In this document: piece after piece, positions 1,723 to 60,344 of the stretch
Position numbering within the stretch: the stretch's first letter is position 1
Layout of the letters: each line of letters starts with the position of its first letter
Assembly: GCA_964542785.1 (NCBI GenBank)
Contig: CAZIUK010000001.1
Location: 197,115-261,114 of the forward strand
Origin: an uncultured Planctomycetales bacterium
GTDB lineage: Bacteria > Omnitrophota > Gorgyraeia > Gygaellales > Profunditerraquicolaceae
Direction of reading: 5' to 3'
Length of the DNA: 64,000 nucleotides
Position numbers and translations under genes: made by a program
Notes under the pieces: generated by a model
What the model was told of the DNA's origin: nothing
Databases searched by the model: none
What the model saw: the letters and a program-made list of their open reading frames with translations, nothing else

Positions 1723-3264
1723 ATGTCAGAAAAAAGAGCAGAGTTAGAGAAGCTTTACAATGATAGCATCAAAGTAATTAAAGAAGGGGATATCGTAACA
1801 GGTAAAATCGTAGCGATAAAAACCAAAGAGGCCTTAGTGGATGTAGGGTTTAAATCTGAAGGGATTGTCCCTATATCCGAGTTTTCTACCCAAGACTTAG
1901 AGGTAGGGAAAGAACTTGAGTTTTTACTTGAGTCAATTGAAAATGACCACGGGAATATAGTCTTATCCCGCGAAAAGGCAATACGTGTAGCTGGTTGGGA
2001 TAAGATTGTTAAGTTCTCCCAAGATGGAACAATGGTAGAAGGCAGACCGGTTAAGAAGGTAAAAGGAGGATTCCTTATTGATGTTATGGGGATAGAGGGA
2101 TTTTTGCCTTTATCTTTATCAGCATTTAAGAATGTACCGGATAAGGAGATTTTATATAAACCTTATAGTTTTAAAATTGTGAAAATAAACAATTTAAGGC
2201 GTAGTATTATCTTAAGCCGCCGTGAAGCAGTCCAAAAAGAGAGGGATGTTGCTAAGGATAAGGTATGGTCAGAGCTTAAGATAGGAAATATCGCTACAGG
2301 CACAGTTAAGGCAATCACTGATTTTGGAGCTTTCATTGACTTAGGTGGGGTTGACGGGCTTTTACACATTACAGATATGTCATGGTCAAAGATAAGCCAC
2401 CCTTCAGAGGTTGTTGCTTTAGGCGATCGGATAGAGGTTATGATTCTTAACATGGATAAAGATTCAGGCAAAGTCTCTTTGGGCCTAAAACAGCGTATGC
2501 CTGATCCATGGGCAGATATCGCTGATAAATTTACCGTTGGTTTAAAGGTAAAGGGTAAAGTAGTTAATATCTTGCCCTATGGTGTTTTTGTTGAGCTTGA
2601 AAAGGGGGTAGAAGGGTTGATTCATGTCTCTGAGATTTCTTGGACTAAGCGCATTAATAACCCAGGAGAGATGTTTTCCGTCGGTGAAACCGTTGAGGCA
2701 CAGATAATTAGCGTTGACGCTGATTCGCGTAGGATTTCGCTTAGCTTAAAACAGCTTGAGCAGAATCCTTGGCTTGAGGCAGAAGAGAAATACAAAGAAG
2801 GCTCTAAGGTATCGGGCAAGGTGCGTGGGTTTACTGATTACGGAGCTTTTGTCGAGTTGGATTCTACCCTTGAAGGGATGATTCATGTCTCTGATATTTC
2901 CTGGACTAAGAGGATTAACCATCCGCAAGATGTCTTAAAGAAAGGGCAGGTAATTGATGTTGTTGTCCTTTCTGTTGATGCGCAAAACAGGCGTATATCT
3001 TTAGGGTTAAAACAATTAGAGGATAGTCCTTGGGAAAAGATTGCTGAAAAATATCCTTTGGACATGGTTCTTGAGGCAGAGGTTGTAAGCATAACTGATT
3101 TTGGTGTTTTTGTTAAGATAGAAGAGGATCTTGAGGGATTGGTTTACTCAAGCGAGATAGATAAAGAGGCAGTAGCGAATCTTAAACCCGGAGATAAGAT
3201 CCAAGTAAAGATAATCAAGGTGGATGTGGAGCAGGCCAAGATCGGCCTTACCGCCCGCCTCTAA
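1723..3264 (+). CDS. rpsA: 30S ribosomal protein S1
   Basis: Multiple tandem S1 domains (repeated G.V.G.V..I..FGAFV.L..G..GL.H.S.IS motifs). Confidence 0.9.
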   Translation: MSEKRAELEKLYNDSIKVIKEGDIVTGKIVAIKTKEALVDVGFKSEGIVPISEFSTQDLEVGKELEFLLESIENDHGNIVLSREKAIRVAGWDKIVKFSQDGTMVEGRPVKKVKGGFLIDVMGIEGFLPLSLSAFKNVPDKEILYKPYSFKIVKINNLRRSIILSRREAVQKERDVAKDKVWSELKIGNIATGTVKAITDFGAFIDLGGVDGLLHITDMSWSKISHPSEVVALGDRIEVMILNMDKDSGKVSLGLKQRMPDPWADIADKFTVGLKVKGKVVNILPYGVFVELEKGVEGLIHVSEISWTKRINNPGEMFSVGETVEAQIISVDADSRRISLSLKQLEQNPWLEAEEKYKEGSKVSGKVRGFTDYGAFVELDSTLEGMIHVSDISWTKRINHPQDVLKKGQVIDVVVLSVDAQNRRISLGLKQLEDSPWEKIAEKYPLDMVLEAEVVSITDFGVFVKIEEDLEGLVYSSEIDKEAVANLKPGDKIQVKIIKVDVEQAKIGLTARL

Positions 3265-3269
3265 TTTGA

Positions 3270-3374
3270 GGGACGCTTCCGAAGGTACCACTCTCCAACG
3301 GTTTTTGGCTAAAAACAGCTAAAAATTGTTAAAAATAATATATTTTTTAGCGGAGCGGCACCTCGGGAGGCGTC
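3270..3374. mobile_element. MITE-like inverted-repeat element, copy A (rpsA-tyrS intergenic)
   Basis: Left end GGGACGCTTCCGAAGGTACCACTCTCCAACGG, AT-rich core with AAAAACAGCTAAAAATTGTT, right end GGCACCTCGGGAGGCGTC is the reverse complement of the left end. Confidence 0.7.
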
Positions 3375-3383
3375 TTCAAGAAG

Positions 3384-4544
3384 ATGATGGAAGAGCAATT
3401 AGCTATAATTAAGCGCGGTGCAGTTGATATTATTTCTGAAGAAGAGTTGCGCAAGAAGCTTAAAGAAAGCATTAAAACCAAAAGGCCGCTTAAAGTAAAA
3501 GCAGGCTTTGACCCCACTGCTCCTGACTTACATTTAGGGCATACTGTTCTTTTACGTAAGCTCCGTCAATTCCAAGATTTAGGCCATGAGGTCTATTTTT
3601 TAATCGGAGATTTTACCGGAATGATTGGCGACCCTACTGGCCGCTCTGAGATAAGAAAGCAACTCACCCGACAAGAAGTTGCTCGCAATGCCTTAACTTA
3701 TAAAAAACAGGTTGCAAAGATTCTAAATTTACGCAAGTTAAAAATAGTCTTTAACAGCAGATGGTTTAGCCGTTTTTCAGGCACAGATATCTTAAAATTA
3801 ACTACTCACTCCTCAATCTCTCAGATTTTAGCCCGCGATGATTTTAAAAAACGCTATACCTTAGGAGAGAATATCTCTATGTTGGAGTTTATGTATCCTT
3901 TGCTGCAAGGTTATGATTCGGTTGTCTTAAAGGCGGATATTGAAATTGGCGGGACTGATCAGATATTCAACCTTCTTGTTGGACGCGATATGCAAAAGGA
4001 CTTTAACCAACCTCAGCAGGTAGTTTTGACTATGCCGCTTTTAGAAGGTACCGATGGTACCCAAAAGATGAGCAAATCCTATTGTAACTATATCGGTATT
4101 AACGAACCGGCAAAAGAGATATTTGGTAAGGTTATGTCTATCTCAGATAACCTGATGCTTAAGTATTACGAACTGCTTACCGATGAGGATTTGGATAAAA
4201 TTAAAGGGATGCATCCGCGCGAGGCCAAAGTTAACCTTGCTAAAATTATCATTACCCAGTATCATTCTAGCGAAGCAGCGCAAAAAGAGGCGGATGAGTT
4301 TACGCGCGTTTTTTCTTTAAAAGAAATCCCGCAGGATATTCCAACATTTAAGGCAGACGCTACAAAAAATATAATAACAATACTTACGGAAAGTAAGCTT
4401 GCCTTAAGCGGAAATGAAGCGCGCCGTTTAGTTAAGCAGGGGGCTGTAAGTTTTAATAACATAAAAGTAGAGAATGAGGATTTTATCCCTAAGGAATCAG
4501 GCGTATTAAAAGTCGGCTCCCGCCGCTTCCTCAAAATCCTCTAG
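3384..4544 (+). CDS. tyrS: tyrosine--tRNA ligase
   Basis: HLGH (HIGH) and KMSKS class-I motifs; C-terminal S4-like domain. Confidence 0.93.
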
Positions 4545-4576
4545 GGGACGCTCCCCAAGGTACCACTCTCCAAAGG
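4544..4576. repeat. solo MITE terminal repeat (left-end type)
   Basis: GGGGACGCTCCCCAAGGTACCACTCTCCAAAGG, identical to the left TIR of the full copies; ends 8 nt before the next ATG. Confidence 0.6.
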
Positions 4577-4584
4577 ATTTTAGC

Positions 4585-4875
4585 ATGTTTTGGACCATAA
4601 TTGGCTCAACAGCAGCAACTCTAACCATGCTTTCTTTTATCCCGCAGATAGTTCGCTCCTATAAAAGCAAGCATGTTAAAGATATCAGCCCGGTTATGCT
4701 CTTTCAGCTCTCTTTAGGTGTCTCTTTATGGATAGCCTACGGCATACACCGCAAAGACCCTATAATTATCATCGCAAACTCCACAACCCTGCTTACGCTC
4801 TTAATCCTCATCTCAATGTATTTTCAGTATGGGGGACGCTCCCCAAGGAGCCACTCTCCAAAGGATTTTGAGTAA
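4585..4875 (+). CDS. SemiSWEET (PQ-loop) sugar transporter; last ~14 codons encoded by MITE copy C
   Basis: 96 aa, 3 TM; the PQ motif (LSFIPQIVRSYKSKHVKDIS) and YGIHRKDPIIIIAN match bacterial SemiSWEETs closely; C-terminus GGRSPRSHSPKDFE is translated from the MITE TIR. Confidence 0.8.
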   Translation: MFWTIIGSTAATLTMLSFIPQIVRSYKSKHVKDISPVMLFQLSLGVSLWIAYGIHRKDPIIIIANSTTLLTLLILISMYFQYGGRSPRSHSPKDFE

Positions 4876-4943
4876 AATCGTATAAAAAAATGCAAAAAAT
4901 CGGTCATTTTCGAAGAAGAGTGGTACCTCGGAGAGCGTCCCCC
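4832..4943. mobile_element. MITE-like element, copy C
   Basis: GGGGACGCTCCCCAAGGAGCCACTCTCCAAAGG ... GAAGAGTGGTACCTCGGAGAGCGTCCCCC. Confidence 0.7.
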
Positions 4944-5711
4944 AGGAGCAGGTTTATTCTTGCTGAATCTGACGGGCTTGTCCTTGAAACTATTCAGACC
5001 TATAGCGCTAACCCTCCCCGCAGAGGCCAGCCTCCAATAGAAACAAAAGGCATTGCCTCCAAACAAGAGTTACGTCTTCTTAAACTCAAAGGCACTTGGC
5101 GCGCCAACCCCTACAACGAGCTTGTATTTGAAGCCTCCGGCCGCAAAGGGAAGCCTGAAAAATTTACCTTCAAAGGCGCTTGGAAGTTAAATAAAAACCA
5201 ACATATTGAATACAAGACTGAAAATAACCGCGATACTCTAACCTTCAAAGGCCATTGGAAAATCCTCTCAGATAAAAAGCTCGTCTATATTTTAGAGGGG
5301 AGCTCAAAGTCAAAATTTGAGTTTAAGGCCCAATTTGAATCTGCCTCAATGCACCCTAAAAAAGGCGCAATCCGTTATCGTATCGGCATTGGAGCGCGCA
5401 GGCGCAGTAGAATCTCTCCGCATAAACTTTTAATACTCTACGGCGAATGGAAATTCAGCCGCAACTTAGGCCTTCTCTTTAATATAGATTACGGGTACAA
5501 CAGAATACAAGCAATATCCCTTGGCGCAGTAGTAACCTTCAGCCCCAACAAAATCGAACTCGCCTTAAGAAATGAATTTGGCAAGCCAATAGGAATTACT
5601 CTTACCTTAACTCGCAAGCTCTTCAAATCCCTTAATGCAAAAGCCTATCTAAGGCTTACCCACCGCCGCCAAGAAAAAGCAATTGAATCCGGCATCACCA
5701 TCCCCTTTTAG
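4890..5711 (+). CDS. hypothetical protein, beta-rich with C-terminal Phe (possible outer-membrane beta-barrel remnant); start uncertain (ATG lies inside the MITE)
   Basis: Only long ORF here; alternating hydrophobic pattern and terminal ...GITIPF; no signal peptide; first ATG is inside MITE copy C; C-rich codon usage unlike neighbours. Confidence 0.4.
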   Translation: MQKIGHFRRRVVPRRASPRSRFILAESDGLVLETIQTYSANPPRRGQPPIETKGIASKQELRLLKLKGTWRANPYNELVFEASGRKGKPEKFTFKGAWKLNKNQHIEYKTENNRDTLTFKGHWKILSDKKLVYILEGSSKSKFEFKAQFESASMHPKKGAIRYRIGIGARRRSRISPHKLLILYGEWKFSRNLGLLFNIDYGYNRIQAISLGAVVTFSPNKIELALRNEFGKPIGITLTLTRKLFKSLNAKAYLRLTHRRQEKAIESGITIPF

Positions 5712-5740
5712 GGGGACGGTTCCTCGCTTCTCAACTCCAG
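5711..5740. repeat. degenerate solo MITE end
   Basis: GGGGACGGTTCCTCGCTTCTCAACTCCAG resembles the TIR with several mismatches. Confidence 0.25.
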
Positions 5741-5816
5741 TAATTACATTACCTTACAACAACATCAAAATATTAGCTGATCCAACCCTCAACAAAAGGA
5801 GGGGAAAATCCCTTAA

Positions 5817-6076
5817 ATGAAGCCTAATAAAATTTTAACCCTTCTCTTTCTCTTCAGCATCGCGTTCTTCCTGCCCAACGCCTCTGCTCAACCCTTATTC
5901 GGCAAAGACTACCTGCAAACCCTTGATAAACACCTAACCCAATCCAAAGACTCTATCACCGTAGCCATGTATTTTATTATAATCACCCCCGAAGACAACC
6001 CAACCCCGGCTAACCAACTCGTAAATTCCCTCATCGCCGCAAAGAATCGCGGAGTAAAAATAAAGGTAATCTTAAA
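5817..6076 (+). pseudogene. PLD-family Nuc-like endonuclease/phospholipase D gene truncated by MITE copy E
   Basis: Signal peptide then KDSITVAMYFI...ANQLVNSLIAAKNRGVKIKVIL matches the N-terminal half of Nuc-type PLD proteins; reading frame runs into the MITE just before where the HxK(x)4D motif would be. Confidence 0.6.
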
Positions 6077-19006: not shown

Positions 19007-20542
19007 ATGGATAATACATTTTTAACTAACCAAAAAAGAGTCAATTTCTTTCCTAAAGCATTGGTAATTATATCTATTTTCCTTATTACTTTTATTATCT
19101 TTGGTTTTTTTTCTACTATTGGCGTTGATCCGCATCATGATGGATTAATGTTTAAGACGGCATTGGATGTTGCTAAGGGTAAGATGTTATTTAGGGATAC
19201 CTTTACTCAATATGGAGTGCTTGTTCATATAATTCATGCTTTATTACTGAATATTTTAGGGGAGTATTTAATTGTCATAAAAATTGCTACTGTTTTTTTC
19301 TATGCTTTGATATTTGTTTTTTTATTTTTAGTCCTAAAAAGAATTATACCGCGGATACTTACGGTTATTTCTATCGTAGTTTGGCTATTATTAGCCCCAT
19401 TTTATATTATGATTTTTTTGCCTTGGCCTTCGGTTTACGCGCTTTTTTTCCAATTATTATGCGTATGGCTTTTGATGCGTTGGTTAGAAACAAGGTTGAG
19501 TTTATATATTTTTTTAACAGGTATTACTACGGCTTTAGTTTTTTTATGCCGGCAGCCGGTAGGTTTTTTTACCTTTACTGCTATGGCCTTTTTTTATCTC
19601 TATCTTTTTTTACAAAGAGAAATCAGCATATTTGAATTTAGAAAGATTCTTTTAAATTATGCAGCAGCTTATTTTGCGATTTTTTCAATTTTTTTAATCT
19701 GGTTATTAATTAACAACGCTTTGATAGATTGGTGGAAGCAATCCATTATTATGCCTTTTCTTTGGGCGGTTAAACAGCCAGCCGGTATTAACATAGGAAG
19801 TTCTTCTGCAGCTGTTTCTCAGCCCTTTATTGGGCTTGATAACCTTGGCATTGGTTTAGTTAGCACTAGGGGGTTTTATGTTGAAAGAGCTGGATTATTT
19901 TTATACTTAGCCCGGGCAATTGTTTATTTTTGGTTTTTACTTCCTTTTTTATCATTTATAAGGAACCGTAAGAACATCCCTATAGTTTTATTTTCTATTA
20001 TTTGTATTGCTTCTGGTTTACAAATTTATCCGGTTCGCGATATTCGTCATATTTATTGGTCATTTGTTTTGATGCCGGGTATAATTGCCCTATTGGTTTA
20101 TCAGTTTACCGGAAAGTTCTTTAAGTATAACCCTAAAGTTTCAAAAAAGGCAGTACTTTTCATAAGTGCTAGTATTTTTATACTCATTTTTTTGCTTCTC
20201 ACCGCAGTATATCTTATAAGGGGCATAGACAAGGCAAAGGATGAGTATTATTTTGCTGATAAACCCCTTGTTTTAAAAGGCATGCGTTTAACTAAAAAAG
20301 AGAGGGATTTTTACCAGCGGGTCTACCAAAAAATAGAAAAATATTTTATGGGTAATCCTTCAGGTAATGTCCTTATTGATAGTGGAAATATGATTTTTTT
20401 AACCTTTGATAACAGGATAAAAAATATACATCCTATATATTTTAATTTATCTTATTCTCCTTGCTATCCGGAGTATCAAAAAATAAGAAATGAATATATC
20501 TTATCTAATAACCCTTTAATACTTCTTGATAATTTAGAATGA
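19007..20542 (+). CDS. polytopic membrane protein (>=10 TM), possibly a GT-C type glycosyltransferase or polymerase
   Basis: Hydrophobicity only; no recognisable motif. Confidence 0.5.
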   Translation: MDNTFLTNQKRVNFFPKALVIISIFLITFIIFGFFSTIGVDPHHDGLMFKTALDVAKGKMLFRDTFTQYGVLVHIIHALLLNILGEYLIVIKIATVFFYALIFVFLFLVLKRIIPRILTVISIVVWLLLAPFYIMIFLPWPSVYALFFQLLCVWLLMRWLETRLSLYIFLTGITTALVFLCRQPVGFFTFTAMAFFYLYLFLQREISIFEFRKILLNYAAAYFAIFSIFLIWLLINNALIDWWKQSIIMPFLWAVKQPAGINIGSSSAAVSQPFIGLDNLGIGLVSTRGFYVERAGLFLYLARAIVYFWFLLPFLSFIRNRKNIPIVLFSIICIASGLQIYPVRDIRHIYWSFVLMPGIIALLVYQFTGKFFKYNPKVSKKAVLFISASIFILIFLLLTAVYLIRGIDKAKDEYYFADKPLVLKGMRLTKKERDFYQRVYQKIEKYFMGNPSGNVLIDSGNMIFLTFDNRIKNIHPIYFNLSYSPCYPEYQKIRNEYILSNNPLILLDNLE

Positions 20543-20558
20543 AGCATATATTTATGTT

Positions 20559-21875
20559 ATGAGCAAAGCCAATGAAGTTAAGAGCAGGATTTTTAGGTTA
20601 GTTAAAGAGTTTTATTGTAAGCAGAAATGTAATAAACCCTTTTCCTTCGGAGAAAGTAGGGTTGAATACGGGGGAAGGGTCTATGATGAAAAAGAGATTA
20701 TTAACCTTGTTGATTCTGCGCTTGAGTTTTGGTTAACTGCCGGCCGTTATACAAAGGAGTTTGAAAGCGCGTTAGCAAGGTTTATTAAAATTAAGCATTG
20801 CCTTTTGACAAACTCCGGCTCTTCAGCCAACCTTTTAGCCATGACTGCCCTAACCTCGCCCTTATTAAAAGAAAGGCGCCTTAAGCCAAAGGACGAGGTT
20901 ATAACTACTGCCTGTGGTTTTCCTACTACGCTTAACCCTATTTTGCAAAATAATCTTACTCCTATATTTATTGATATAGAGTTAGGAAATTATAATATTG
21001 ATGTAAATAAAATTAAAAGAGCTATCTCTAAGAGGACAAGGGCAATTTTTACTGCGCATACTTTAGGTAATCCCATAAACATTGATGAGATAAAAAAATT
21101 AGTAAAAAAACATAAACTCTGGTGGATTGAAGATAATTGCGATGCCTTGGGCTCAAGGTATCGCGGTAAATATACAGGCGGCTTTGGCGATATTTCTACC
21201 TGCAGTTTTTATCCTCCGCATCATATTACTATGGGAGAAGGGGGAGCGGTTTTAACAAACAATCCTCTTTTAAGAAGAATTGTATTATCTTTGCGTGATT
21301 GGGGTAGGGATTGCTGGTGTGAGCCAGGCAAGGATGATACCTGTAAAAGAAGGTTTAGCCAAAAATTCGGCACCCTACCCTATGGGTATGACCATAAGTA
21401 TGTATATTCACATATCGGCTATAATTTAAAAGTTACTGATATGCAGGCGGCAATAGGTTGCGCGCAATTAGATAAACTGCTTAAGTTTATTTTAGTAAGA
21501 AAGGCTAATTTTAAGGCCATATACGGGTTCTTTAAGAAATACGAAGATTATTTTATACTGCCTCAAGCGCAAGAATATTCAAGCCCAAGTTGGTTTGGTT
21601 TTCCAGTGTTAGTTAAAGAAGGCGCGCCTTTCAAAAGAAATGATATAGTTAATTATTTAGAGTCGCATAAGATTGCTACAAGGATGCTTTTTGGGGGGAA
21701 TTTATTAAGACAGCCGGCTTATAAGGGTATAAAATGCCGCATAGTTGGAAACTTAAAGAATACTGACTTAGTTATGAATAATCTTTTTTGGATTGGCGTT
21801 TATCCGGGGTTAACTAAAGAAAAACTTTGCTATATAGAAAAAACTTTATCTGATTTTATGAGGAGGCATAGATGA
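20559..21875 (+). CDS. rfbH: CDP-4-keto-6-deoxy-D-glucose-3-dehydrase (E1, RfbH/DdhC type)
   Basis: DegT-fold protein; His-His (FYPPHHITMGEGG) replaces the PLP lysine; CWCEPGKDDTC fits the CXCX7C 2Fe-2S motif of E1; 438 aa. Confidence 0.85.
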   Translation: MSKANEVKSRIFRLVKEFYCKQKCNKPFSFGESRVEYGGRVYDEKEIINLVDSALEFWLTAGRYTKEFESALARFIKIKHCLLTNSGSSANLLAMTALTSPLLKERRLKPKDEVITTACGFPTTLNPILQNNLTPIFIDIELGNYNIDVNKIKRAISKRTRAIFTAHTLGNPINIDEIKKLVKKHKLWWIEDNCDALGSRYRGKYTGGFGDISTCSFYPPHHITMGEGGAVLTNNPLLRRIVLSLRDWGRDCWCEPGKDDTCKRRFSQKFGTLPYGYDHKYVYSHIGYNLKVTDMQAAIGCAQLDKLLKFILVRKANFKAIYGFFKKYEDYFILPQAQEYSSPSWFGFPVLVKEGAPFKRNDIVNYLESHKIATRMLFGGNLLRQPAYKGIKCRIVGNLKNTDLVMNNLFWIGVYPGLTKEKLCYIEKTLSDFMRRHR

Positions 21876-22607: not shown

Positions 22608-23417
22608 ATGGCGCAAAGGAATAAATTAAGATTAGTTCTTTTGGCAGTATTGTTGCTTGGTATATTTATATTAGGCGCGTATTATTTTTGGCTCGCCCCA
22701 AAATACACAGTTCCGATATTAATGTATCATTCAATAGGGTATGAAGAGGGTAGTTTCTTTGTTTCGCCTGAAAACTTTAACCGTCAGATGAGGTATTTGA
22801 AGGATAAGGGTTATGAGGTGATATCTTTAGATGAATTGGTTAAAAGTATAGAGAGTAAAAAAAGAGTAAGAAGAAACAAGGTCGTAATTACCTTTGATGA
22901 CGGGTATAAAGATAATTTTACTTATGCTTATCCTGTTCTTAAGCGTTATAATTTCCCTGCGACTATTTTTTTGATAACGGATTATATAGGGACAAAATCT
23001 AATCCCGGCGAAAAGGAGTTTATGTTATGGGAAGATGTGGTGGTTATGTCTAATAATGGTATAAGCTTTGGTGGCCATACTAAGTCTCATATTACTCTTG
23101 GGTTAATGGTAGATGAAAAGCAGGCATTTGAGGAGATAGCCGGCTCAAAGGAAGCGCTTGAAAAAAAGATAGATGGAAGAGTTGACTATTTTTGTTATCC
23201 GGTAGGTGCTTTTAACGAAAGAATAAAGGAGTTAGTAAGAAAAGCTGGTTATAAGGGTGCCTGCGCAACGAACCGTGGATATGTAAAGTATAACCGTGAT
23301 GTTTATGAGTTAAAGAGGATTAAGGTAACTAACTCTGATACAAATAAGCCTTTTAGTTTTTGGGCAAAATTATCAGGATATTATATGCTTTTTGATAGAG
23401 AAAGGAGTCCTTACTAA
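22608..23417 (+). CDS. polysaccharide deacetylase (NodB-domain) with N-terminal TM anchor
   Basis: VITFDDGYKDNF NodB motif 1, HTKSH motif; ATG 22608 with RBS GAGGAAG preferred over the track start. Confidence 0.8.
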   Translation: MAQRNKLRLVLLAVLLLGIFILGAYYFWLAPKYTVPILMYHSIGYEEGSFFVSPENFNRQMRYLKDKGYEVISLDELVKSIESKKRVRRNKVVITFDDGYKDNFTYAYPVLKRYNFPATIFLITDYIGTKSNPGEKEFMLWEDVVVMSNNGISFGGHTKSHITLGLMVDEKQAFEEIAGSKEALEKKIDGRVDYFCYPVGAFNERIKELVRKAGYKGACATNRGYVKYNRDVYELKRIKVTNSDTNKPFSFWAKLSGYYMLFDRERSPY

Positions 23418-24658
23418 TGCAAAAAGTACTCAAAATTGTAACTGCGGTTAATTATTGGGCGATTGTTTTATTGCCTTTTTCAGTAGGTATTGCTCCGGGT
23501 TTTGCAAATACAGTTATTGGGGTTATATTTGCTTCGTTTTTTATTGAAAAGATTATCAAGAAAGAGAAGATATTTAATTTTTCATTACCAGTGGCGTTAT
23601 TTTTACTTTTTATCTTGATTAGTTTACTTTCTTTTTTTAATACGTCTAATTTAAAGGATAGTGTTCACGGCATAACAAAACTGTTAAAGTTTTTCTTTTT
23701 ATTTACTATTTGTAGCCAAAACATTAAGGATAAAAAGCATTTTGAGAGGATAGCAATATCTATAGCGTGTGCCGTATCTCTTTTGGGTATTGATGCTATT
23801 TGGCAGATTATAACCGGTAAGGATTTCATTCGAGGTAATGCTTTACAGGATCGTATAGGGTTGGTAAGAGCTACAGCGGCATTTCCGGGATGTAATGGAT
23901 TGGGAGTTTACCTTACGGGGTTAACTCCGATTATTGCAGGTATAGCGTTATTTGTAAAAGAGAAGAGGTGGAGGGTTATTTTTGCTTTAGTCGCTTTAAT
24001 TGGAAGTATTGGGGTTTATCTTACTTTATCGCGTGGAGCAGGGATAGGTTTATTTGTAAGTGTTTTATTTTTAAGCATTGTTAGGAGGAATAAGCTTGTA
24101 ATTACTGCGTTAATCTTTTTAATCATAGCGTATCCATTTATTATGCCAAAGAATATTAAGGACTGGGTAAGAAGTGTTAATTATAATCCGGTAGTTGTAC
24201 TGCTTAACGAGGACAGGATAGGTATTTATAGAAACACGATTCGCATGATAAAAAAACATCCTTTTGTAGGGATAGGAATAAATACTTTTTCTAAAAAATA
24301 TAGTGATTATAGGGATCCAGAAGTAGAAAGAACCAATCCTACAGCTGATGGGTATTATGCGCATAATAACTTTTTACATATGGCTGGAGAGGTTGGGCTT
24401 TTTGGGTTGGGTGTTTTCTTGTTATTTTTGTTTTTTGTATTTAAGTCTATTTGGGCGGCTTTTAAGAAAAACACAGATTATTGTTTAAAAGCTTTTGCTG
24501 TTTCTATTTTTGCAGGGCTTTTAGCGTATCTTATAAACGGGCTTACTGAAACCAGCCTTTATTATTCACGTATTGTTATGATTTTTTACTTTATGGTAGG
24601 CTTAGGCCTTGCGCTTACAAAACTTACCGATAAAAATGAAACTGCAAAAAATCAGTAA
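23417..24658 (+). CDS. O-antigen ligase / Wzy_C-family membrane protein
   Basis: About 10 TM; HNNFLHMAGEVGLFG Wzy_C-type motif in a periplasmic loop. Confidence 0.7.
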   Translation: MQKVLKIVTAVNYWAIVLLPFSVGIAPGFANTVIGVIFASFFIEKIIKKEKIFNFSLPVALFLLFILISLLSFFNTSNLKDSVHGITKLLKFFFLFTICSQNIKDKKHFERIAISIACAVSLLGIDAIWQIITGKDFIRGNALQDRIGLVRATAAFPGCNGLGVYLTGLTPIIAGIALFVKEKRWRVIFALVALIGSIGVYLTLSRGAGIGLFVSVLFLSIVRRNKLVITALIFLIIAYPFIMPKNIKDWVRSVNYNPVVVLLNEDRIGIYRNTIRMIKKHPFVGIGINTFSKKYSDYRDPEVERTNPTADGYYAHNNFLHMAGEVGLFGLGVFLLFLFFVFKSIWAAFKKNTDYCLKAFAVSIFAGLLAYLINGLTETSLYYSRIVMIFYFMVGLGLALTKLTDKNETAKNQ

Positions 24659-36667: not shown

Positions 36668-37612
36668 ATGAAAATAGCATTTTTCGGCAGTTCATATTTC
36701 GCTGTCCCGGCACTTGAGGCGCTTATTAAAAATAAGCATAAAGTTTTTTGCGTTGTTACCCAGTCGGATAAGAAAAAGGGTAGGTACTTGCGTTTAGGGT
36801 ATACTGATATTAAGGCGAAAGCATTAGAGGCAAACCTAAAGGTTTTTCAACCAGAGAACGTCAATACCCCTAAGTCAGTTGAGTATTTAAAAAAGCTTAA
36901 CGTGGATATTTTTGTAATAGTCTCCTATGGCCAGATTTTGTCGCAGGAAGTTTTAGATATTCCAAAGGTATTCCCTTTAAATATTCACGCTTCACTCTTG
37001 CCTAAATACCGTGGTGCAGCGCCTATAAATTGGGCAGTGATAAATGGCGAAAAGGTTACGGGTGTAACTATTATGCAGGTAACTAAAAAGATGGACTCCG
37101 GCCCGATAATCTTACAGCAAAAAATAGATATTTTAAATACGGATGATTCTTGTTCTTTGGAATTTAAACTGCGTGATTTAGGCGCGGATTTGTTGTTAAA
37201 AGCTCTTTCCTTGATAAAGGGTAAGAATTATAAATTAATAGAACAGGATGAAAGAGAGGTTGTCTTTGCCCCTAAGCTTAAAAAAAGCGACGGGCTTATT
37301 AATTGGGAGATGCCTGCGCAAGAGATAGCCAATCTTATCCGCGGGGTTCAGCCTTGGCCGGGAGCTTCTACATGTTATAACGGAAAACTATTAAAGATTT
37401 ATAAAGCAAAGCCTCTTGACTGTAAGTTACCTCAAGTCGATTCTTGTTCTTTTGGAGGAATAGTGTTGGTGGGTAAAGAAGGGATAACCGTAAAAACAGG
37501 AAAAGGATTTTTACTGATTGAGGAGTTACAGCTTGAAGGCAAAAAAAGGCTGACCGCAGGAGAGTTTCTCTTAGGCCACGAGATTAAAATGGGGACAGCG
37601 ACTTTTTTTTAA
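36668..37612 (+). CDS. fmt: methionyl-tRNA formyltransferase
   Basis: N-term MKIAFFGSSYFAVPAL; formyltransferase SLLP/HASLLPKYRG motif; C-terminal domain. Confidence 0.92.
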   Translation: MKIAFFGSSYFAVPALEALIKNKHKVFCVVTQSDKKKGRYLRLGYTDIKAKALEANLKVFQPENVNTPKSVEYLKKLNVDIFVIVSYGQILSQEVLDIPKVFPLNIHASLLPKYRGAAPINWAVINGEKVTGVTIMQVTKKMDSGPIILQQKIDILNTDDSCSLEFKLRDLGADLLLKALSLIKGKNYKLIEQDEREVVFAPKLKKSDGLINWEMPAQEIANLIRGVQPWPGASTCYNGKLLKIYKAKPLDCKLPQVDSCSFGGIVLVGKEGITVKTGKGFLLIEELQLEGKKRLTAGEFLLGHEIKMGTATFF

Positions 37613-37629
37613 AAAAAGTCGCTGTCCCC
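37591..37629. terminator. perfect 19-bp-stem palindrome GGGGACAGCGACTTTTTTT/AAAAAAAGTCGCTGTCCCC (repeat family, cf. 60304)
   Basis: Inverted repeat with A/T tracts; overlaps the last 7 codons and stop of fmt; a partial third arm follows at 37632-37650. Confidence 0.6.
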
Positions 37630-37703
37630 CTGTCAAAAGTCGCTGTTCCCAAAAAAGCAAAAAAGGATTGCATAATTAATAGCTTGTGCTATAATTTTTT
37701 TCT

Positions 37704-38729
37704 ATGCCAGAACTTAGAAAAGATCCGGTTATTGGTAGGTGGGTTATAATCGCTACAGAAAGGGCGCGTAGGCCTGATTATTTTAACGGCGAGAGTCATG
37801 AGCCTGTAGTAGAGAAGTCTTGCCCATTTTGTGAAGGGTTAGAAGAGCAGACCCCTAAAGAGATTTATGCCTTAAGGCCGCGGGGGACTGCGCCTAATAG
37901 CCCTGGGTGGGATTTAAGGGTTGTACCGAGCATAGCCCCTTTTTTAAAGGTAGAAGGAGAGTTAGACCGCCAAGGAAAAGGCCTTTATGACATAATGAGC
38001 GGGATTGGCGCTCATGAGATAATTATTGAAACTAACAAGCATATTGCTAATATAGCTGATTTAACCTTAGATCAGATTACTAAGGTTTTAAAGTGCTATA
38101 CGGATAGGATTTTAGATTTAGAGAAGGATGAGCGTTTTAAATATGTTTTGGCTTTTAAGAATTATGGCGGGGCTGCAGGTGGAAGCAAGATAAGGCATGC
38201 GCGTTCGCAGTTGATAGCTACTCCTGTAAACCCTAAGAGGGTAAAAGAAGAACTTGCTGGAGCAAGACGTTACTTTGATCACCATGAAAGGTGTGTTTTT
38301 TGCGACCTTATCAGGCAGGAGCTTGAACAGAAGTCGCGTTTAATTTTAGATCTAGACGGGTTTGTTGCGGTTAGCCCATTTGCCGCAAGGTTTCCTTTTG
38401 AGACTTGGATACTTCCAAAAAAACACAGCCCTGATTTTACTTCTCAGGATAGTAAGTCCTTAGAAAATCTTGCTAAAATGATGAAGATCGTACTTTTAAA
38501 ATTAAAGAAGGGTTTAAATGACCCGTCTTATAATTATATTATTCATACTGCTCCTTTTAGGCGTAAAAAAGTCGGCTATTGGAAGACGATTGAGCATGAT
38601 TATCATTGGCATATTGAGATTATGCCACGCCTTACACGCATCGCAGGTTTTGAATGGGGGACAGGGTTTTACATTTGCCCGATAGCTCCAGAGGAAGCGG
38701 CTAAATTTTTAAGAGAGGTAGAAGTATAA
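37704..38729 (+). CDS. galactose-1-phosphate uridylyltransferase-like (GalT/HIT family) paralog 1, HPH motif changed to HAR
   Basis: DPVIGRWVII..RP, CPFCEG zinc motif; IRHARSQLIA where GalT has HPHGQ. Confidence 0.75.
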   Translation: MPELRKDPVIGRWVIIATERARRPDYFNGESHEPVVEKSCPFCEGLEEQTPKEIYALRPRGTAPNSPGWDLRVVPSIAPFLKVEGELDRQGKGLYDIMSGIGAHEIIIETNKHIANIADLTLDQITKVLKCYTDRILDLEKDERFKYVLAFKNYGGAAGGSKIRHARSQLIATPVNPKRVKEELAGARRYFDHHERCVFCDLIRQELEQKSRLILDLDGFVAVSPFAARFPFETWILPKKHSPDFTSQDSKSLENLAKMMKIVLLKLKKGLNDPSYNYIIHTAPFRRKKVGYWKTIEHDYHWHIEIMPRLTRIAGFEWGTGFYICPIAPEEAAKFLREVEV

Positions 38730-38730
38730 A

Positions 38731-39726
38731 ATGGGAGAGTTAAGGCGTGATCCTATTGTTGGCAGGTGGGTGATTGTAGATAAAAGTAATACCCCAGCCA
38801 TAAAAGATTTTCAATATGAGAAGAATACCTCTAAAGGTGGGGTATGCCCTTTTTGTTACGGTAATGAAGCTATGGTTCCTCCTGAAGTAGAGTGTTTTAG
38901 AGAACCTGGGACAAGCCCTAATACCTCAGGCTGGTATGTAAGGACTGTGCCGAATAGGTTTCCTGCTTTGCAGATAGAAGGAGATTTAGACAAAAGGCCG
39001 GTAGGGCTTTATGATATGTCTAATGGAGTTGGCGCCCATGAGATAATTATTGAAAGCCCTTATCATGCTAAAGATATTTCAGACCTATTGCCCCATGAAG
39101 TAGAAAATTATATAAGGATGTGCCGTAACCGCGCCTTTGATTTGGCTAAGGATAAGCGTTTTAAATACTTAATGTTTTTCAGGAATTTTGGGCATGGAGC
39201 AGGCGCTTCTTTAGAGCATCCGCATACACAGTTAATCGCTCTGCCTATGGTCCCAAAAAATGTGGCAGAGGAGATTATTGGAGCAAAGAGTTATTTTGAT
39301 TATAAGGAGCGTTGTATCTTCTGTGATATGATAAGGCAAGAGATGCAGGAGAAAGAGCGCATAATATTTGAGAATAAGTATTTTTTGTCCTTTTGCCCTT
39401 TTGTTTCACGTTTTCCTTTTGAGATTTGGATTATGCCTAAAAAGCACAACGCTTACCTTCGTTTTGTTTCAGATGAAGAGATAAAGCTCTTAGCTGAAAT
39501 TTTAAAAGATACGGTAAGCAGGGTAAAAAATATTTTTCCGGATATTTCTTATAATTATATACTTCATGTTGCACCCATTAACGGAGATGTTGATGTAGAG
39601 TATTATCATTGGCATATTGAGTTTATGCCTAAATTAACACAAGTTGCAGGTTTTGAATGGGGGACGGGGTTTTATATTAGCCCGATTACGCCTGAGCGAG
39701 CTGCAAAATATTTAAAAGGAGGGTAA
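38731..39726 (+). CDS. galT: galactose-1-phosphate uridylyltransferase-like paralog 2 (canonical HPH)
   Basis: [17 protein letters not shown]. Confidence 0.8.
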
Positions 39727-39730
39727 TAGA

Positions 39731-40783
39731 ATGGCAGTAAAGGTAGGTATCAATGGTTTTGGGAGGATTGGCAGATTAGTTGCCCGAGCGATATTAGAGA
39801 GAGGCTCTAAAGATATAGAGTTGGTGGCGGTAAATGACTTAACAGATGCAAAGTCAAACGCATACCTTTTTAAATATGACTCCGTACACGGAAGGTTTAA
39901 TGGAGAGGTTAATGCTATTTCGGGTGATACAATCTCAGTCAACGGAAAAGAGATTAAGGTTTTAAGTAAGAGAGACCCTTCAGAGTTACCTTGGAAGGAT
40001 TTAGGGGTTGAGATAGTGGTTGAGTCAACCGGGCTTTTTACCGTCAAAAAAGATGGAGTGAATAAAAAGGGTAAGGAGGTAAAGGGCGCTGAGAATCATA
40101 TAACTAAAGGTGGGGCAAAGAAGGTTATTATTTCTGCTCCGGCTGAAGGCGAGGATATAACTATTGTTATGGGGGTGAATGAGGGTAAGTATGACCCTAA
40201 GAACCATAATGTTTTATCTAACGCCTCTTGTACGACTAATTGCTTAGCACCGGTTGCTAAGGTTATCAATGATAATTGGGGGATAGTAAAGGGATTGATG
40301 ACTACTATCCATGCTTATACTAATGACCAGAAGATTCAGGATATGGCGCATTCGGATTTACGCCGCGCGCGCGCTGCCGCAGTCTCGATGATACCTACTT
40401 CTACGGGTGCGGCTAAGGCGATATCATTGGTTATTCCGGAGCTAAAAGGTAAACTTGATGGTTTTGCAATCCGGGTACCGACACCTAATGTTTCTGTGGT
40501 GGATTTAACCCTTTCTTTAGCAAAGAAAGCTACGGCTGAAGAGTTAAACGCAGCACTTAAGGCAGCTTCAGAAGGTGCCATGAAAGGTATTTTAGGTTAT
40601 ACCGAAGACCCTGTAGTTTCAATTGACTTTAATCATTGCCAATTAAGTTCAGTAGTTGATGCTAAGAGTACCAAGATTATACAGGATGATTTTGTAAAGG
40701 TACTTTCTTGGTATGATAATGAGTGGGGTTATTCAAACCGCGTAGTTGACCTTTGCGAATACATCATCCGCAAAGGCCTCTAA
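39731..40783 (+). CDS. gap: glyceraldehyde-3-phosphate dehydrogenase
   Basis: [22 protein letters not shown] active-site motif. Confidence 0.95.
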
Positions 40784-40860: not shown

Positions 40861-42042
40861 ATGGGTAAGTTAACGCTAAGGGATTTAGAGTTAAAAGGAA
40901 GAGTTGTTTTGATGCGCGCTGATTTTAATGTGCCGCAGGACAAAGAGCTGAAGATAACTGATGATACGCGTATAAGGGCAACCCTTCCGACAATAAAGTA
41001 TATATTAGAAAACAGCGCAAAAAAACTTATTCTTATAAGCCATTTAGGCAGGCCTGAGGGGAAAGTAGTAGAAAAGTATAGTCTAAAACCGGTATCTTTG
41101 CGTTTAACAGAGCTTTTAGGCGAAGAGGTCTTGTTTTTAAATGATTGCGTAGGGGTAAGTATTAAAGAGTCGGTTCAGTCTGCTAAGGAGCGGGTAATCC
41201 TTTTAGAGAATCTTCGTTTCTATCCACAGGAAGAGGCAAATGATCCTAATTTTGCTAAAGAGTTAGCTTCTTTAGCTGAGGTATTTGTTAATGATGCCTT
41301 TGGTACTGCCCACCGCGCCCATGCTTCTACTGAAGGGGTAACGCATTTTTTAAAATCAGCCGCAGGTTTTCTTTTAGAAAAAGAGATAGAATATTTAGGC
41401 AGGGTAATCATAAATCCGGCAAAGCCATTTATGGTTATTTTAGGAGGGGCAAAGGTTTCAGACAAAATCGCTATGATTGAGAACCTTCTGCCTAAGGCAG
41501 ATGCGTTTATTATTGGCGGCGGGATGGCATACACATTTTTAAAAGCACAAGGAAAAGAGATAGGCAATTCAAAGCTTGAAAAAGAAAGGATAGATTTAGC
41601 AAAGAGTATCCTTAGCCAAGCAAAAGAACAGGGTAAAGATATACTCTTGCCGGTTGATAATATTGTAGTAGAATCAATTGATGCAAATGCCAAGAGTGAA
41701 TTAGTAGGAGAGGATATCCCTGATGGGAAGATAGCCGTTGATATTGGTCCAAAGACAGTAGAGCTTTTTAGCGCAAAGCTAAAAAATGCAAAAACTATAG
41801 TTTGGAATGGGCCTTTAGGGATTTTTGAGATGGATGCCTTTGCCAAAGGCACAAGAGAAGTTGCTAAATTTATTTCAGGGTTAGACTGCATCTCTATTAT
41901 TGGAGGCGGGGATACTGCAGCAGCAATAGCTAAGTTTAGATTAGAAGATAAGATGACGCATATCTCAACTGGAGGCGGAGCAAGCTTAGAATACTTGGAA
42001 GGTAAAATCCTTCCCGGGGTAGCAGCGCTCACAGACAAATAA
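40861..42042 (+). CDS. pgk: phosphoglycerate kinase
   Basis: RADFNVP, GGGASLE motifs. Confidence 0.95.
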   Translation: MGKLTLRDLELKGRVVLMRADFNVPQDKELKITDDTRIRATLPTIKYILENSAKKLILISHLGRPEGKVVEKYSLKPVSLRLTELLGEEVLFLNDCVGVSIKESVQSAKERVILLENLRFYPQEEANDPNFAKELASLAEVFVNDAFGTAHRAHASTEGVTHFLKSAAGFLLEKEIEYLGRVIINPAKPFMVILGGAKVSDKIAMIENLLPKADAFIIGGGMAYTFLKAQGKEIGNSKLEKERIDLAKSILSQAKEQGKDILLPVDNIVVESIDANAKSELVGEDIPDGKIAVDIGPKTVELFSAKLKNAKTIVWNGPLGIFEMDAFAKGTREVAKFISGLDCISIIGGGDTAAAIAKFRLEDKMTHISTGGGASLEYLEGKILPGVAALTDK

Positions 42043-42043
42043 G

Positions 42044-42817
42044 ATGAGAAGGACGATTATCGCTGGAAACTGGAAGATGTATAAGACAATTAAAGAAGCG
42101 ATTGAATTAACCAATGGCTTAAAAAGGGAACTGTTTAAGATTAATAGCGATGCCTTGGATATAGTCCTATGCCCGTCTTTTACTGCGCTTTCTGATGTTG
42201 CGGAGGTAATTAATGAAACGGGGATAAAATTAGGAGGGCAGGATTTATACTGGGTAGATGAGGGTGCTTTCACCGGAGAGGTATCGGGTAAGATGTTAAA
42301 AGATGTTGGGTGTAGTTATGTTATTATTGGGCATTCTGAGCGCAGGCAATTTTTTGGCGAAACTAACGAGAGCGTGAATAGGAAGATTAAAAGTGCTCTT
42401 TCCAATGGGTTAATTCCTATAGTCTGTGTGGGCGAGATGCTTGCTGAGCGTGAGGCAGGGAAAACCTTCGATATCCTTAAAAACCATGTAGAGGGCGCAT
42501 TAAGCGGGCTCTTAGAGGAAGATGTTTTAAAAATAGTTATTGCTTATGAACCGGTTTGGGCAATAGGCACAGGTAAGACAGCAACCCCTCAACAGGCGCA
42601 AGAGGTGCATAAATATATCCGTCAGTTATTGTGTAAGTTGTATAATCAAGAGGTTGCCTCTGAGGTAAGGATACAATACGGAGGCAGTGTCAAGCCTGAT
42701 AATATAGTAGAATTAATGAGAGAGCCTGATGTTGACGGCGCATTAGTGGGGGGTGCTAGCCTTAAAGTCGATACATTTTCAGAGATAGTTACTAAAGCTT
42801 CCGAGGTGTTAAAATGA
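42044..42817 (+). CDS. tpiA: triosephosphate isomerase
   Basis: AGNWKM, IGHSERR, AYEPVWAIGTG. Confidence 0.95.
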   Translation: MRRTIIAGNWKMYKTIKEAIELTNGLKRELFKINSDALDIVLCPSFTALSDVAEVINETGIKLGGQDLYWVDEGAFTGEVSGKMLKDVGCSYVIIGHSERRQFFGETNESVNRKIKSALSNGLIPIVCVGEMLAEREAGKTFDILKNHVEGALSGLLEEDVLKIVIAYEPVWAIGTGKTATPQQAQEVHKYIRQLLCKLYNQEVASEVRIQYGGSVKPDNIVELMREPDVDGALVGGASLKVDTFSEIVTKASEVLK

Positions 42818-60303: not shown

Positions 60304-60344
60304 TAGGGGACAGCGACTTTTTATAAAAAGTCGCTGTCCCCTAT
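60304..60344. terminator. palindrome GGGGACAGCGACTTTTTAT/AAAAAGTCGCTGTCCCC after lipA (same family as 37591)
   Basis: 19-bp perfect stem, 6 nt after the lipA stop. Confidence 0.65.

Follow-up and report, generated by a model that had tools for sequence, protein, structure and literature searches.

Tandem GalT-like paralogues of Omnitrophota with complementary losses of active-site elements are predicted to share one composite active site

The window analysed here is a 64,000-nucleotide stretch of DNA from an uncultured bacterium of the phylum Omnitrophota (listed in GenBank as a Planctomycetales bacterium; assembly GCA_964542785.1, contig CAZIUK010000001.1, positions 197,115–261,114 of the forward strand). 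On its + strand lie two adjacent genes, P1 (37704–38729) and P2 (38731–39726), which encode proteins of 341 and 331 residues, respectively; all elements within them that are described below are on the same strand. The initial annotation regarded the two genes as tandem GalT-like paralogues, and both open reading frames (ORFs) were recovered in our analysis, with 46% identity between the two proteins over their full length (E = 1e-113). P1 lacks the catalytic nucleophile, and we propose that it serves as a non-catalytic partner subunit; P2 has an intact own-chain catalytic motif and is the proposed catalytic subunit. An exact-sequence look-up of P1 returned contigs of 2–3 kb only.

P1 and P2 both matched PF01087 and PF02744, the N- and C-terminal GalP_UDP_transf domains, and also DUF4931_N, DUF4921 and TIGR00209 (galT), the last with scores just over its cut-off. 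In a phmmer search against the PDB, the best match of both proteins was Arabidopsis At5g18200 (1Z84/2H39), an ADP-glucose phosphorylase (E = 9e-69 for P1 and 3e-64 for P2), with class I GalTs from Pyrobaculum, E. coli and human next in order. The AlphaFold model of P1 has a predicted local distance difference test (pLDDT) value of 69.8 and a predicted template modelling (TM) score of 0.76; its top structural match is again 1Z84/2H39, with a TM-score of 0.82. Both proteins have the fold of two fused HIT-like halves, and both retain the N-terminal dimerization strand motif E-L-R-x-D-P-x-x-G-R-W-V-I. The zinc site, formed by C40, C43, H104 and H165 in P1 and by C39, C42, H103 and H163 in P2, is 100% conserved in both clades. 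In structure, P1 and P2 thus belong to the GalT branch of the HIT superfamily. They are not Leloir GalTs (UDP-glucose:galactose-1-phosphate uridylyltransferases); against the PRK11720 equivalog model the pair scored 120 and 133 bits, compared to a cut-off of 448, and the neighbours of the pair are fmt and gap-pgk-tpiA, with no adjacent gal genes (galK, galE).

The catalytic motif of P2 is E162-H163-P-H165-T-Q167 (39214–39231), in which His163 is a zinc ligand, His165 is the nucleophile and Gln167 stabilizes the intermediate; across the P2 clade these three residues are 100% conserved. The corresponding segment of P1 is R164-H165-A-R167-S-Q169 (38193–38210). The zinc ligand His165 is kept, Arg167 stands in place of the nucleophilic His, and the net charge of the motif is about +2 instead of about 0. 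The initial annotation had read the same letters (RHARSQ in P1 and EHPHTQ in P2) and proposed that HPH had been changed to HAR in the upstream copy; this assignment holds, with a firm and gapless register. In the phmmer alignment with At5g18200, which is gapless around the motif, H184-S-H186-S-Q corresponds to H165-A-R167-S-Q of P1 and to H163-P-H165-T-Q of P2, and in an L-INS-i alignment of 247 sequences Arg167 shares its column with E. coli His166. A shift of register that would align a His with the nucleophile had been named as the finding that would overturn the claim; pairwise hidden Markov model (HMM) comparison, alignments of 150 and 247 sequences and structure search all kept Arg167 on the nucleophile column, and such a shift was rejected.

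A survey of orthologues, as had been suggested, showed that all 120 closest database orthologues of P1 (73–81% identical) carry H-[S/A/T]-[R/K]-S-Q; the HAR state is therefore due neither to chance nor to sequencing error. In 81 P1-type sequences taken from species-level genomes, the nucleophile position is occupied by Arg in 74, Lys in 1, Ile in 1 (the lineage L074) and His in 5. More widely, 137 of the 150 best representatives after clustering at 50% carry His, and the rest carry R, Y, S, V, C, I or L, indicating that the nucleophile was lost repeatedly in the subfamily. P1 has lost a second own-chain element as well: Ser76 (37929–37931), which is Ser in 77 of the 81 P1-type sequences, replaces an Asn that is conserved in the family (Asn77 in E. 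coli, Asn97 in human) and acts within its own chain, beside the active-site Gln. One of the options raised for P1 at the outset was a different chemistry such as that of a phosphorylase. The phosphorylase At5g18200, however, keeps His at the nucleophile position, which speaks against phosphorylase chemistry in P1; the ADP-glucose complex deposited as 2H39 is that of At5g18200 substituted at the nucleophile position.

The meaning of these losses depends on how the active sites of known GalT dimers are built. In human GALT, Arg48 and Arg51 bind the phosphate of glucose-1-phosphate, and the segment that carries them crosses to the other subunit, with hydrogen bonds Arg48A-Phe99B, His47A-Pro100B and Ser45A-Ala101B and a salt bridge Arg51B-Asp98A; Arg48, which lies beside Gln188, is described as 'from the opposite chain' (PMC5081055, PMC8513031). 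The hexose loop Lys334...Gln346 is likewise supplied by the chain opposite to the one with the His, whereas Asn97 (E. coli Asn77) touches Gln188 of the same chain (PMC5081055, PMC8513031). According to a 2026 preprint, E. coli GalT and At5g18200 have the same shared-site architecture. In homodimers of canonical class I GalT and of At5g18200, one chain provides the cis elements, which are the zinc-bound H-x-H-x-Q motif with its nucleophilic His and the Asn77 equivalent; the other chain provides the trans elements, which are the R-x-x-R-P arginines that hold the phosphate of the hexose-1-phosphate and the C-terminal loop that binds the hexose.

P1 retains both trans elements. Its residues 19–24, E-R-A-R-R-P (37758–37775), correspond to E. 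coli Arg28/Arg31 and human Arg48/Arg51, the arginines that bind phosphate in the site of the partner; R20 is conserved to 99% and R23 to 93%. Its C-terminal loop (residues 314–326; 38643–38681) corresponds to the loop that, in dimeric GalT, binds the hexose at the active site of the partner, and it is better conserved in P1 than in P2. P2 differs in the first of these elements. At the position of the canonical R-x-x-R-P (Arg28/Arg31 in E. coli, Arg48/Arg51 in human, Arg41/Arg44 in At5g18200) it has D-K-S-N-T-P-A-I-K, aligned without gaps between the anchors W13 and F27; both arginines are gone from this degenerate counterpart (residues 16–26; 38776–38808), which is variable and acidic in the P2 clade, with a mean net charge of -2.2. 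The first Arg is missing from P2 in 75 of 75 pairs, and the second position is variable. As judged from the sequences, neither protein alone has a complete set of catalytic elements: P1 fails in the nucleophile and P2 in the trans arginines. The statement in the initial annotation that both copies keep the CxxC zinc motif and the overall motifs of the fold therefore stands for CxxC only, owing to the Asn to Ser76 change in P1 and the absence of the R-x-x-R-P arginines from P2. The suggestion that P1 could be a pseudoenzyme or partner subunit gains support, for P2 is incomplete too, and precisely the arginines that it lacks for acting on a partner are present in P1.

To place these losses among all conserved positions, we compared P1 and P2 column by column with complete relatives. 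The L-INS-i alignment contained 81 P1-type, 69 P2-type and 95 complete representatives together with At5g18200 and E. coli GalT, and some 78 of its columns reach a conservation of 80% or more in the 95 complete relatives. P1 departs from them at five columns, Asn77 (E. coli) to Ser76, Ala81 to Phe80, position 160 to Gly, His166 to Arg167 and Asn334 (At5g18200) to Cys325. P2 also departs at five only, Arg28 to His/Asn, Arg31 to Lys/Ala and three minor positions that include the same At5g18200 Asn334 column. Four of the five P1 losses fall in own-chain elements; the exception, the Asn334 column, belongs to the C-terminal loop that acts on the partner. Both major losses of P2 affect elements that serve the site of the partner. 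With own-chain losses in P1 and partner-chain losses in P2, a P1:P2 dimer would have one complete site, and its other site would be defective from both sides.

The constraint on the two paralogues follows the same division. Mean column entropy was calculated from 69 matched pairs. Over the whole protein it is 1.00 bits for P1 and 1.15 bits for P2; in the trans N-terminal segment the values are 0.67 and 1.70, and in the trans C-terminal loop they are 0.40 and 0.65. The order is reversed in the cis nucleotide strand (0.92 for P1 and 0.57 for P2) and in the cis motif region (0.92 and 0.67). P1 is thus tighter in the trans elements and looser in the cis elements, which is the pattern that a shared-site model would predict. 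Charge was compared in the same way. The cis motif (residues 160–170) has a net charge of +2.17 in P1, -0.99 in P2 and -0.26 in the complete relatives; for the trans N-terminal segment (residues 16–26), the corresponding values are +0.98, -2.16 and +0.91. Polarity is therefore inverted on both faces of the dead site, and the live site has the ancestral polarity. For a correlation between the His or Arg state of P1 and the charge of the P2 segment, the four His-bearing pairs, three of them from one clade, are too few.

These data also bear on the view that P1 is a decaying duplicate without function. P1 has lost both the His and the Asn77 equivalent, and in the divergent locus L088 it has lost a zinc His as well, with P0128 being similar; all of this would fit decay. 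However, P1 is full length in every genome and more conserved than P2, with a mean pairwise identity of 0.678 compared to 0.632. Across a phylum-level sample its orthologues are 59–81% identical, and there are about 100 invariant columns among 36 sequences. Decay is accordingly an extremely improbable explanation, and P1 as a pseudogene or functionless relic was ruled out by this conservation.

The two genes also travel together. Among 80 loci from species genomes, both genes stand in tandem at 75, four are cut by contig ends, and a single gene was found at one (L077), so that 75 of the 76 evaluable loci carry the tandem pair. The lone gene of L077 has every motif intact and is a canonical enzyme. 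The more divergent P1-type genes of L087 and L088, which are about 50% identical, also have a P2-type gene directly downstream. One further locus, L086 (P0128), appeared to carry P1 without P2; there, at 2457–3566, a priA-like ORF on the opposite strand overlaps the end of the P1-like gene, and the locus was read as a rearranged or chimeric Logan contig and left unused. In prozyme heteromers, such as trypanosomatid deoxyhypusine synthase, AdoMetDC (S-adenosylmethionine decarboxylase) with its prozyme and the plant ADP-glucose pyrophosphorylase subunits, a dead paralogue is required since the sites lie at the subunit interface, and each dimer has one live and one dead site. The dead paralogue P1 shows what is expected of a prozyme, namely purifying selection together with strict co-occurrence with the live paralogue. 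P1 and P2 would follow the same logic of a pseudoenzyme partner, with another fold and another chemistry.

The pairs also bear on the order of the losses. In four of them P1 retains H-x-H (L066, L071, L073 and L078), and the first Arg is gone from P2 even there; the trans loss in P2 therefore came before the loss of the His in P1. The changes Asn to Ser and His to Arg within P1 are not strictly coupled; Ser occurs with His in four sequences and Asn with Arg in three. The deep branches of the neighbour-joining tree are star-like, and the tree was used for clade membership and not for dating the duplication.

Natural fusions provide a separate view of the pair. Three proteins that join a P1-type and a P2-type module, 596–599 residues in size, came from independent samples and share 52–56% mutual identity. 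The locus of one of them was read (P0121, in L083), and the fusion gene lies directly upstream of gap-pgk-tpi-secG, in the same place as the pair. Module 1 has neither CxxC nor H-x-H in any of the three; it contains the segment A-V-E-R-A-K-R-P-N-D-F and the loop A-G-F-E-W-G-T-G-x-Y-I-N-P-T, both of them invariant. Module 2, again in all three, starts at C-P-F-C, so that the N-terminal trans segment is deleted, and it retains H-P/S-H-T-Q; of the two C-terminal loops, that of module 1 is the better conserved. The fusions hold exactly the elements assigned to the live site, with the dead site erased, and they support the association of P1 with P2. In the AlphaFold model of P0121, residues 1–52 have pLDDT values below 50; module 1 had three aligned sequences, as MAFFT put the single-module sequences on module 2. 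A different type of two-module protein, P0144 (871 residues), contains two GalT-like modules in one chain, both with H-x-H, behind a long low-complexity N-terminus.

The fusions help to judge whether P1 could itself be a catalyst with altered chemistry, in which Arg167 would stabilize the transition state of a direct, non-covalent nucleotidyl transfer or of hydrolysis. Such a role would agree with the retention of the zinc site, Asn153, Gly159 and Gln169 in P1, and with the selection of a basic residue at the nucleophile position (R in 74 and K in 1 of 81 sequences). Nevertheless, the Asn77 equivalent has also been lost, and the trans partner of the P1 pocket in a heterodimer would be the arginine-less segment of P2. 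In addition, L074 carries Ile at this position, the motif is wholly deleted in the fusions, and no precedent in the HIT family was found in the literature that could be searched. We regard altered chemistry in P1 as quite unlikely.

Taken together, these observations led us to propose that P1 and P2 form an obligate heterodimeric nucleotidyltransferase or phosphorylase, belonging to the GalT branch of HIT proteins, with a single composite active site; we assign this reading a probability of roughly 0.7. We infer physical heterodimerization from the sequence features, conservation, synteny and fusions that were observed. After the duplication, P2 would have lost the trans arginines and P1 the cis residues, through Asn to Ser76 and His to Arg167. 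The live site would be composed of His165, Gln167 and Asn75 of P2, Arg20 and Arg23 of P1 and the C-terminal loop of P1; the dead site would combine the cis elements of P1 with the trans elements of P2 and would be defective on both sides. P1 would therefore be a pseudoenzyme and yet indispensable, since it would donate Arg20, Arg23 and the sugar loop to the His165 site of P2.

The inverted charge of the dead site could act as a latch, favouring P1:P2 pairing and penalizing both homodimers. This proposal is based on the geometry of a human variant. For human GALT p.Gln188Arg, a cause of classic galactosaemia, charge repulsion with Arg48 of the opposite chain has been proposed to account for dominant-negative behaviour. 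Like the variant, P1 has a positive charge in the cis H-x-H-x-Q motif that would lie near the opposite Arg48 equivalent, and the same geometry argues that Arg164 and Arg167 of P1 disfavour P1:P1. In contrast to the human variant, in which a point mutation of a homodimer causes disease, the charge is fixed here and is matched by an acidic segment of the partner.

The reaction of the composite site would be nucleoside diphosphate (NDP)-glucose + inorganic phosphate (or hexose-1-phosphate) <-> glucose-1-phosphate + NDP (or NDP-hexose), passing through a nucleotidyl-His165 intermediate, and it would tie the glucan and NDP-sugar pools to the co-transcribed gap-pgk-tpiA genes. Several hints point in this direction. 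At5g18200 is the nearest characterized enzyme, the locus of the fusion contains a gene for phosphoglucomutase on the upstream side, and GalT-like domains occur fused to glucan enzymes. In P0153 (814 residues; a 19-member cluster that includes Coprothermobacterota) the GalT-like domain is joined to a GlgA-type glycogen/starch synthase, and in P0160 and P0205 (about 860–875 residues) to a GH57 glucan enzyme; a 2024 review on the alpha-glucan enzymes of prokaryotes contains no mention of enzymes of the GalT-like type.

A number of observations weigh against the heterodimer with one composite site, or against parts of it. The cis and trans assignment was taken from the literature on human and E. 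coli GalT and carried over by homology at 20–40% identity. The second Arg of the R-x-x-R-P motif has become Lys in many P2 orthologues, and this Lys could keep partial function. In the lineage of the window, the dead site of P1 is remodelled and not eroding: its zinc ligands and Gln169 do not vary, and conservation is 91% for Arg167, 100% for Lys181 and 95–100% for Arg287 and a G-Y-W insertion, so that P1 may have a role beyond the donation of trans residues. In other lineages, some relatives have lost elements and stand alone. P0122 (L089), which has the His and no arginines, lies beside ruvX/yceG, and P0129 (L084), P0132 (L091), P0145 (L085) and P0204 (L090) have no His and no adjacent paralogue; the neighbours of these His-less copies are pantothenate kinase/Usp, acetate kinase, larB/larC-like genes (AIRC + Ni_insertion) and a baeRF release-factor-like gene. 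Either such degenerate copies have unlinked partners, or they have other roles, and the loss of elements does not always go with a neighbouring partner. The assignment of an NDP-glucose/glucan reaction is indirect and the weakest part of the proposal, and none of the ten large ORFs of the window that were scanned, which include rpsA, tyrS, a thiamine pyrophosphate enzyme, a DegT aminotransferase, Wzy and gcvP, is a glucan-metabolism gene.

The stand-alone copies P0122, P0129, P0132, P0145 and P0204 would be easier to understand if P1 and P2 were separate homodimers. P2 would then be an ordinary transferase or phosphorylase in which other residues, for example Lys23/Lys25, make up for the missing arginines. 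P1 would have no catalytic role and would serve in ligand binding or regulation, its basic pocket accepting a sugar phosphate or a nucleotide sugar, and the two would be co-expressed only because P1 regulates the same pathway. The conserved innovations of P1 itself, Arg167, Lys181, Arg287 and the G-Y-W insertion, would agree with this. The losses, however, are exactly complementary by chain origin, the regional conservation is reversed between the paralogues as a shared site would predict, and the tandem linkage is strict. Moreover, the fusions keep only the trans elements of P1 and have erased the whole cis pocket including the zinc site, so the pocket of P1 is not the function that is conserved across lineages. 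Separate homodimers therefore appear unlikely to us.

The retained P1 pocket could also be accommodated in another way, in which the dead site would have become an allosteric pocket that binds a nucleotide or a phosphorylated metabolite of glycolysis and gates the flux between NDP-glucose and glucose-1-phosphate towards the co-transcribed gap-pgk-tpiA genes. The zinc site and Gln169 are kept, a basic cluster has been gained (Arg164/Lys164, Arg167, Lys181 and Arg287), and the G-Y-W insertion is present; from these we consider an allosteric role a tentative idea, and a somewhat doubtful one. If true, it would mean that a regulatory subunit was born from a half-dead HIT enzyme, like the regulatory subunits of ADP-glucose pyrophosphorylase.

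The surroundings of the pair agree with the composite-site heterodimer in so far as the start codon of P2 lies 1 nucleotide past the stop codon of P1, a tight spacing that fits equimolar synthesis of two subunits. The gap gene (39731–40783, + strand) follows directly, its start lying 4 nucleotides past the stop of P2; pgk (40861–42042) and tpiA (42044–42817) come next on the same strand, and the order fmt-P1-P2-gap(-pgk-tpi) is kept across Omnitrophota loci. Upstream, a palindrome with a perfect 18-bp stem, GGGGACAGCGAC-(A/T loop)-GTCGCTGTCCCC (37591–37629), overlaps the end of fmt. It is terminator-like and probably marks the upstream edge of the P1-P2-gap transcription unit. The same palindrome recurs, again in an intergenic position, at 60306–60341, and a half-copy lies at 37639–37650 (five arm matches, compared to 0.08 expected by chance); the family would represent either a repetitive extragenic palindromic (REP)-like element or a shared bidirectional terminator. 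Between the palindrome and P1, a promoter-like site on the + strand (37668–37695) consists of TTGCAT, a 16-nucleotide spacer and the extended -10 element TGcTATAAT (37687–37695), which ends 8 nucleotides before the ATG of P1. The putative -35 element matches at 3 of 6 positions only, so that the site is absent from the list of an automatic scan. There is no Shine-Dalgarno sequence between the extended -10 element and the ATG, suggesting that the P1-P2-gap mRNA is leaderless or near-leaderless.

The window as a whole (1–64000) is strongly oriented. All 66 greedy non-overlapping ORFs of at least 110 residues are on the + strand, and GC skew is positive in every 2-kb bin but 4001–6000, consistent with one long co-oriented segment of a replichore. 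Elsewhere in the window, an ORF of 511 residues (19007–20542) with no Pfam match at E <= 1e-5 lies just upstream of the DegT-type aminotransferase gene (20559–21875), downstream of which a Wzy-like O-antigen polymerase/ligase is encoded (23417–24658); the 511-residue ORF may be a component of a surface-polysaccharide cluster.

Among known enzymes, At5g18200 is closest to the pair. It shares the fold, the first zinc site (CxxC, a His and the zinc-binding His of H-x-H), the second CxxC/His site, R-A-K-R-P and H-x-H-x-Q. Different from the pair, in which the motifs are divided between P1 and P2, At5g18200 is a homodimer with two identical and complete sites. The class I GalTs (E. coli 1HXP/1HXQ, human 5IN3 and Pyrobaculum 6K5Z) share the fold and the two-chain active site; however, their identity is only 20–28%, and the pair studied here has no gal genes nearby, is predicted to be heteromeric and is half-dead. 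Our literature search found no report of such a split-site pair in the GalT/HIT proteins, of the Omnitrophota pair or of GlgA- or GH57-GalT-like fusions, most papers in subscription journals being outside its coverage.

If the proposed heterodimer is correct, it would be, as far as we found, the first obligate heterodimer of the HIT superfamily, and of the medically important GalT fold, that splits the nucleophile and the phosphate-binding arginines between two chains. The pair would also be a natural experiment on the decay of two-chain sites after duplication, in which trans loss came first and was followed by cis decay, charge inversion and finally fusion with the dead half erased. In public genomes the two genes bear the annotation 'galactose-1-phosphate uridylyltransferase'; under the proposed model, the product of neither gene should be an enzyme by itself. 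GalT-like proteins with a fused glycogen synthase or GH57 form a wider set that is apparently undescribed. For Omnitrophota, a phylum with very few cultured representatives, the pair would point to a link from NDP-glucose and glucan to glycolysis that is conserved across the phylum.

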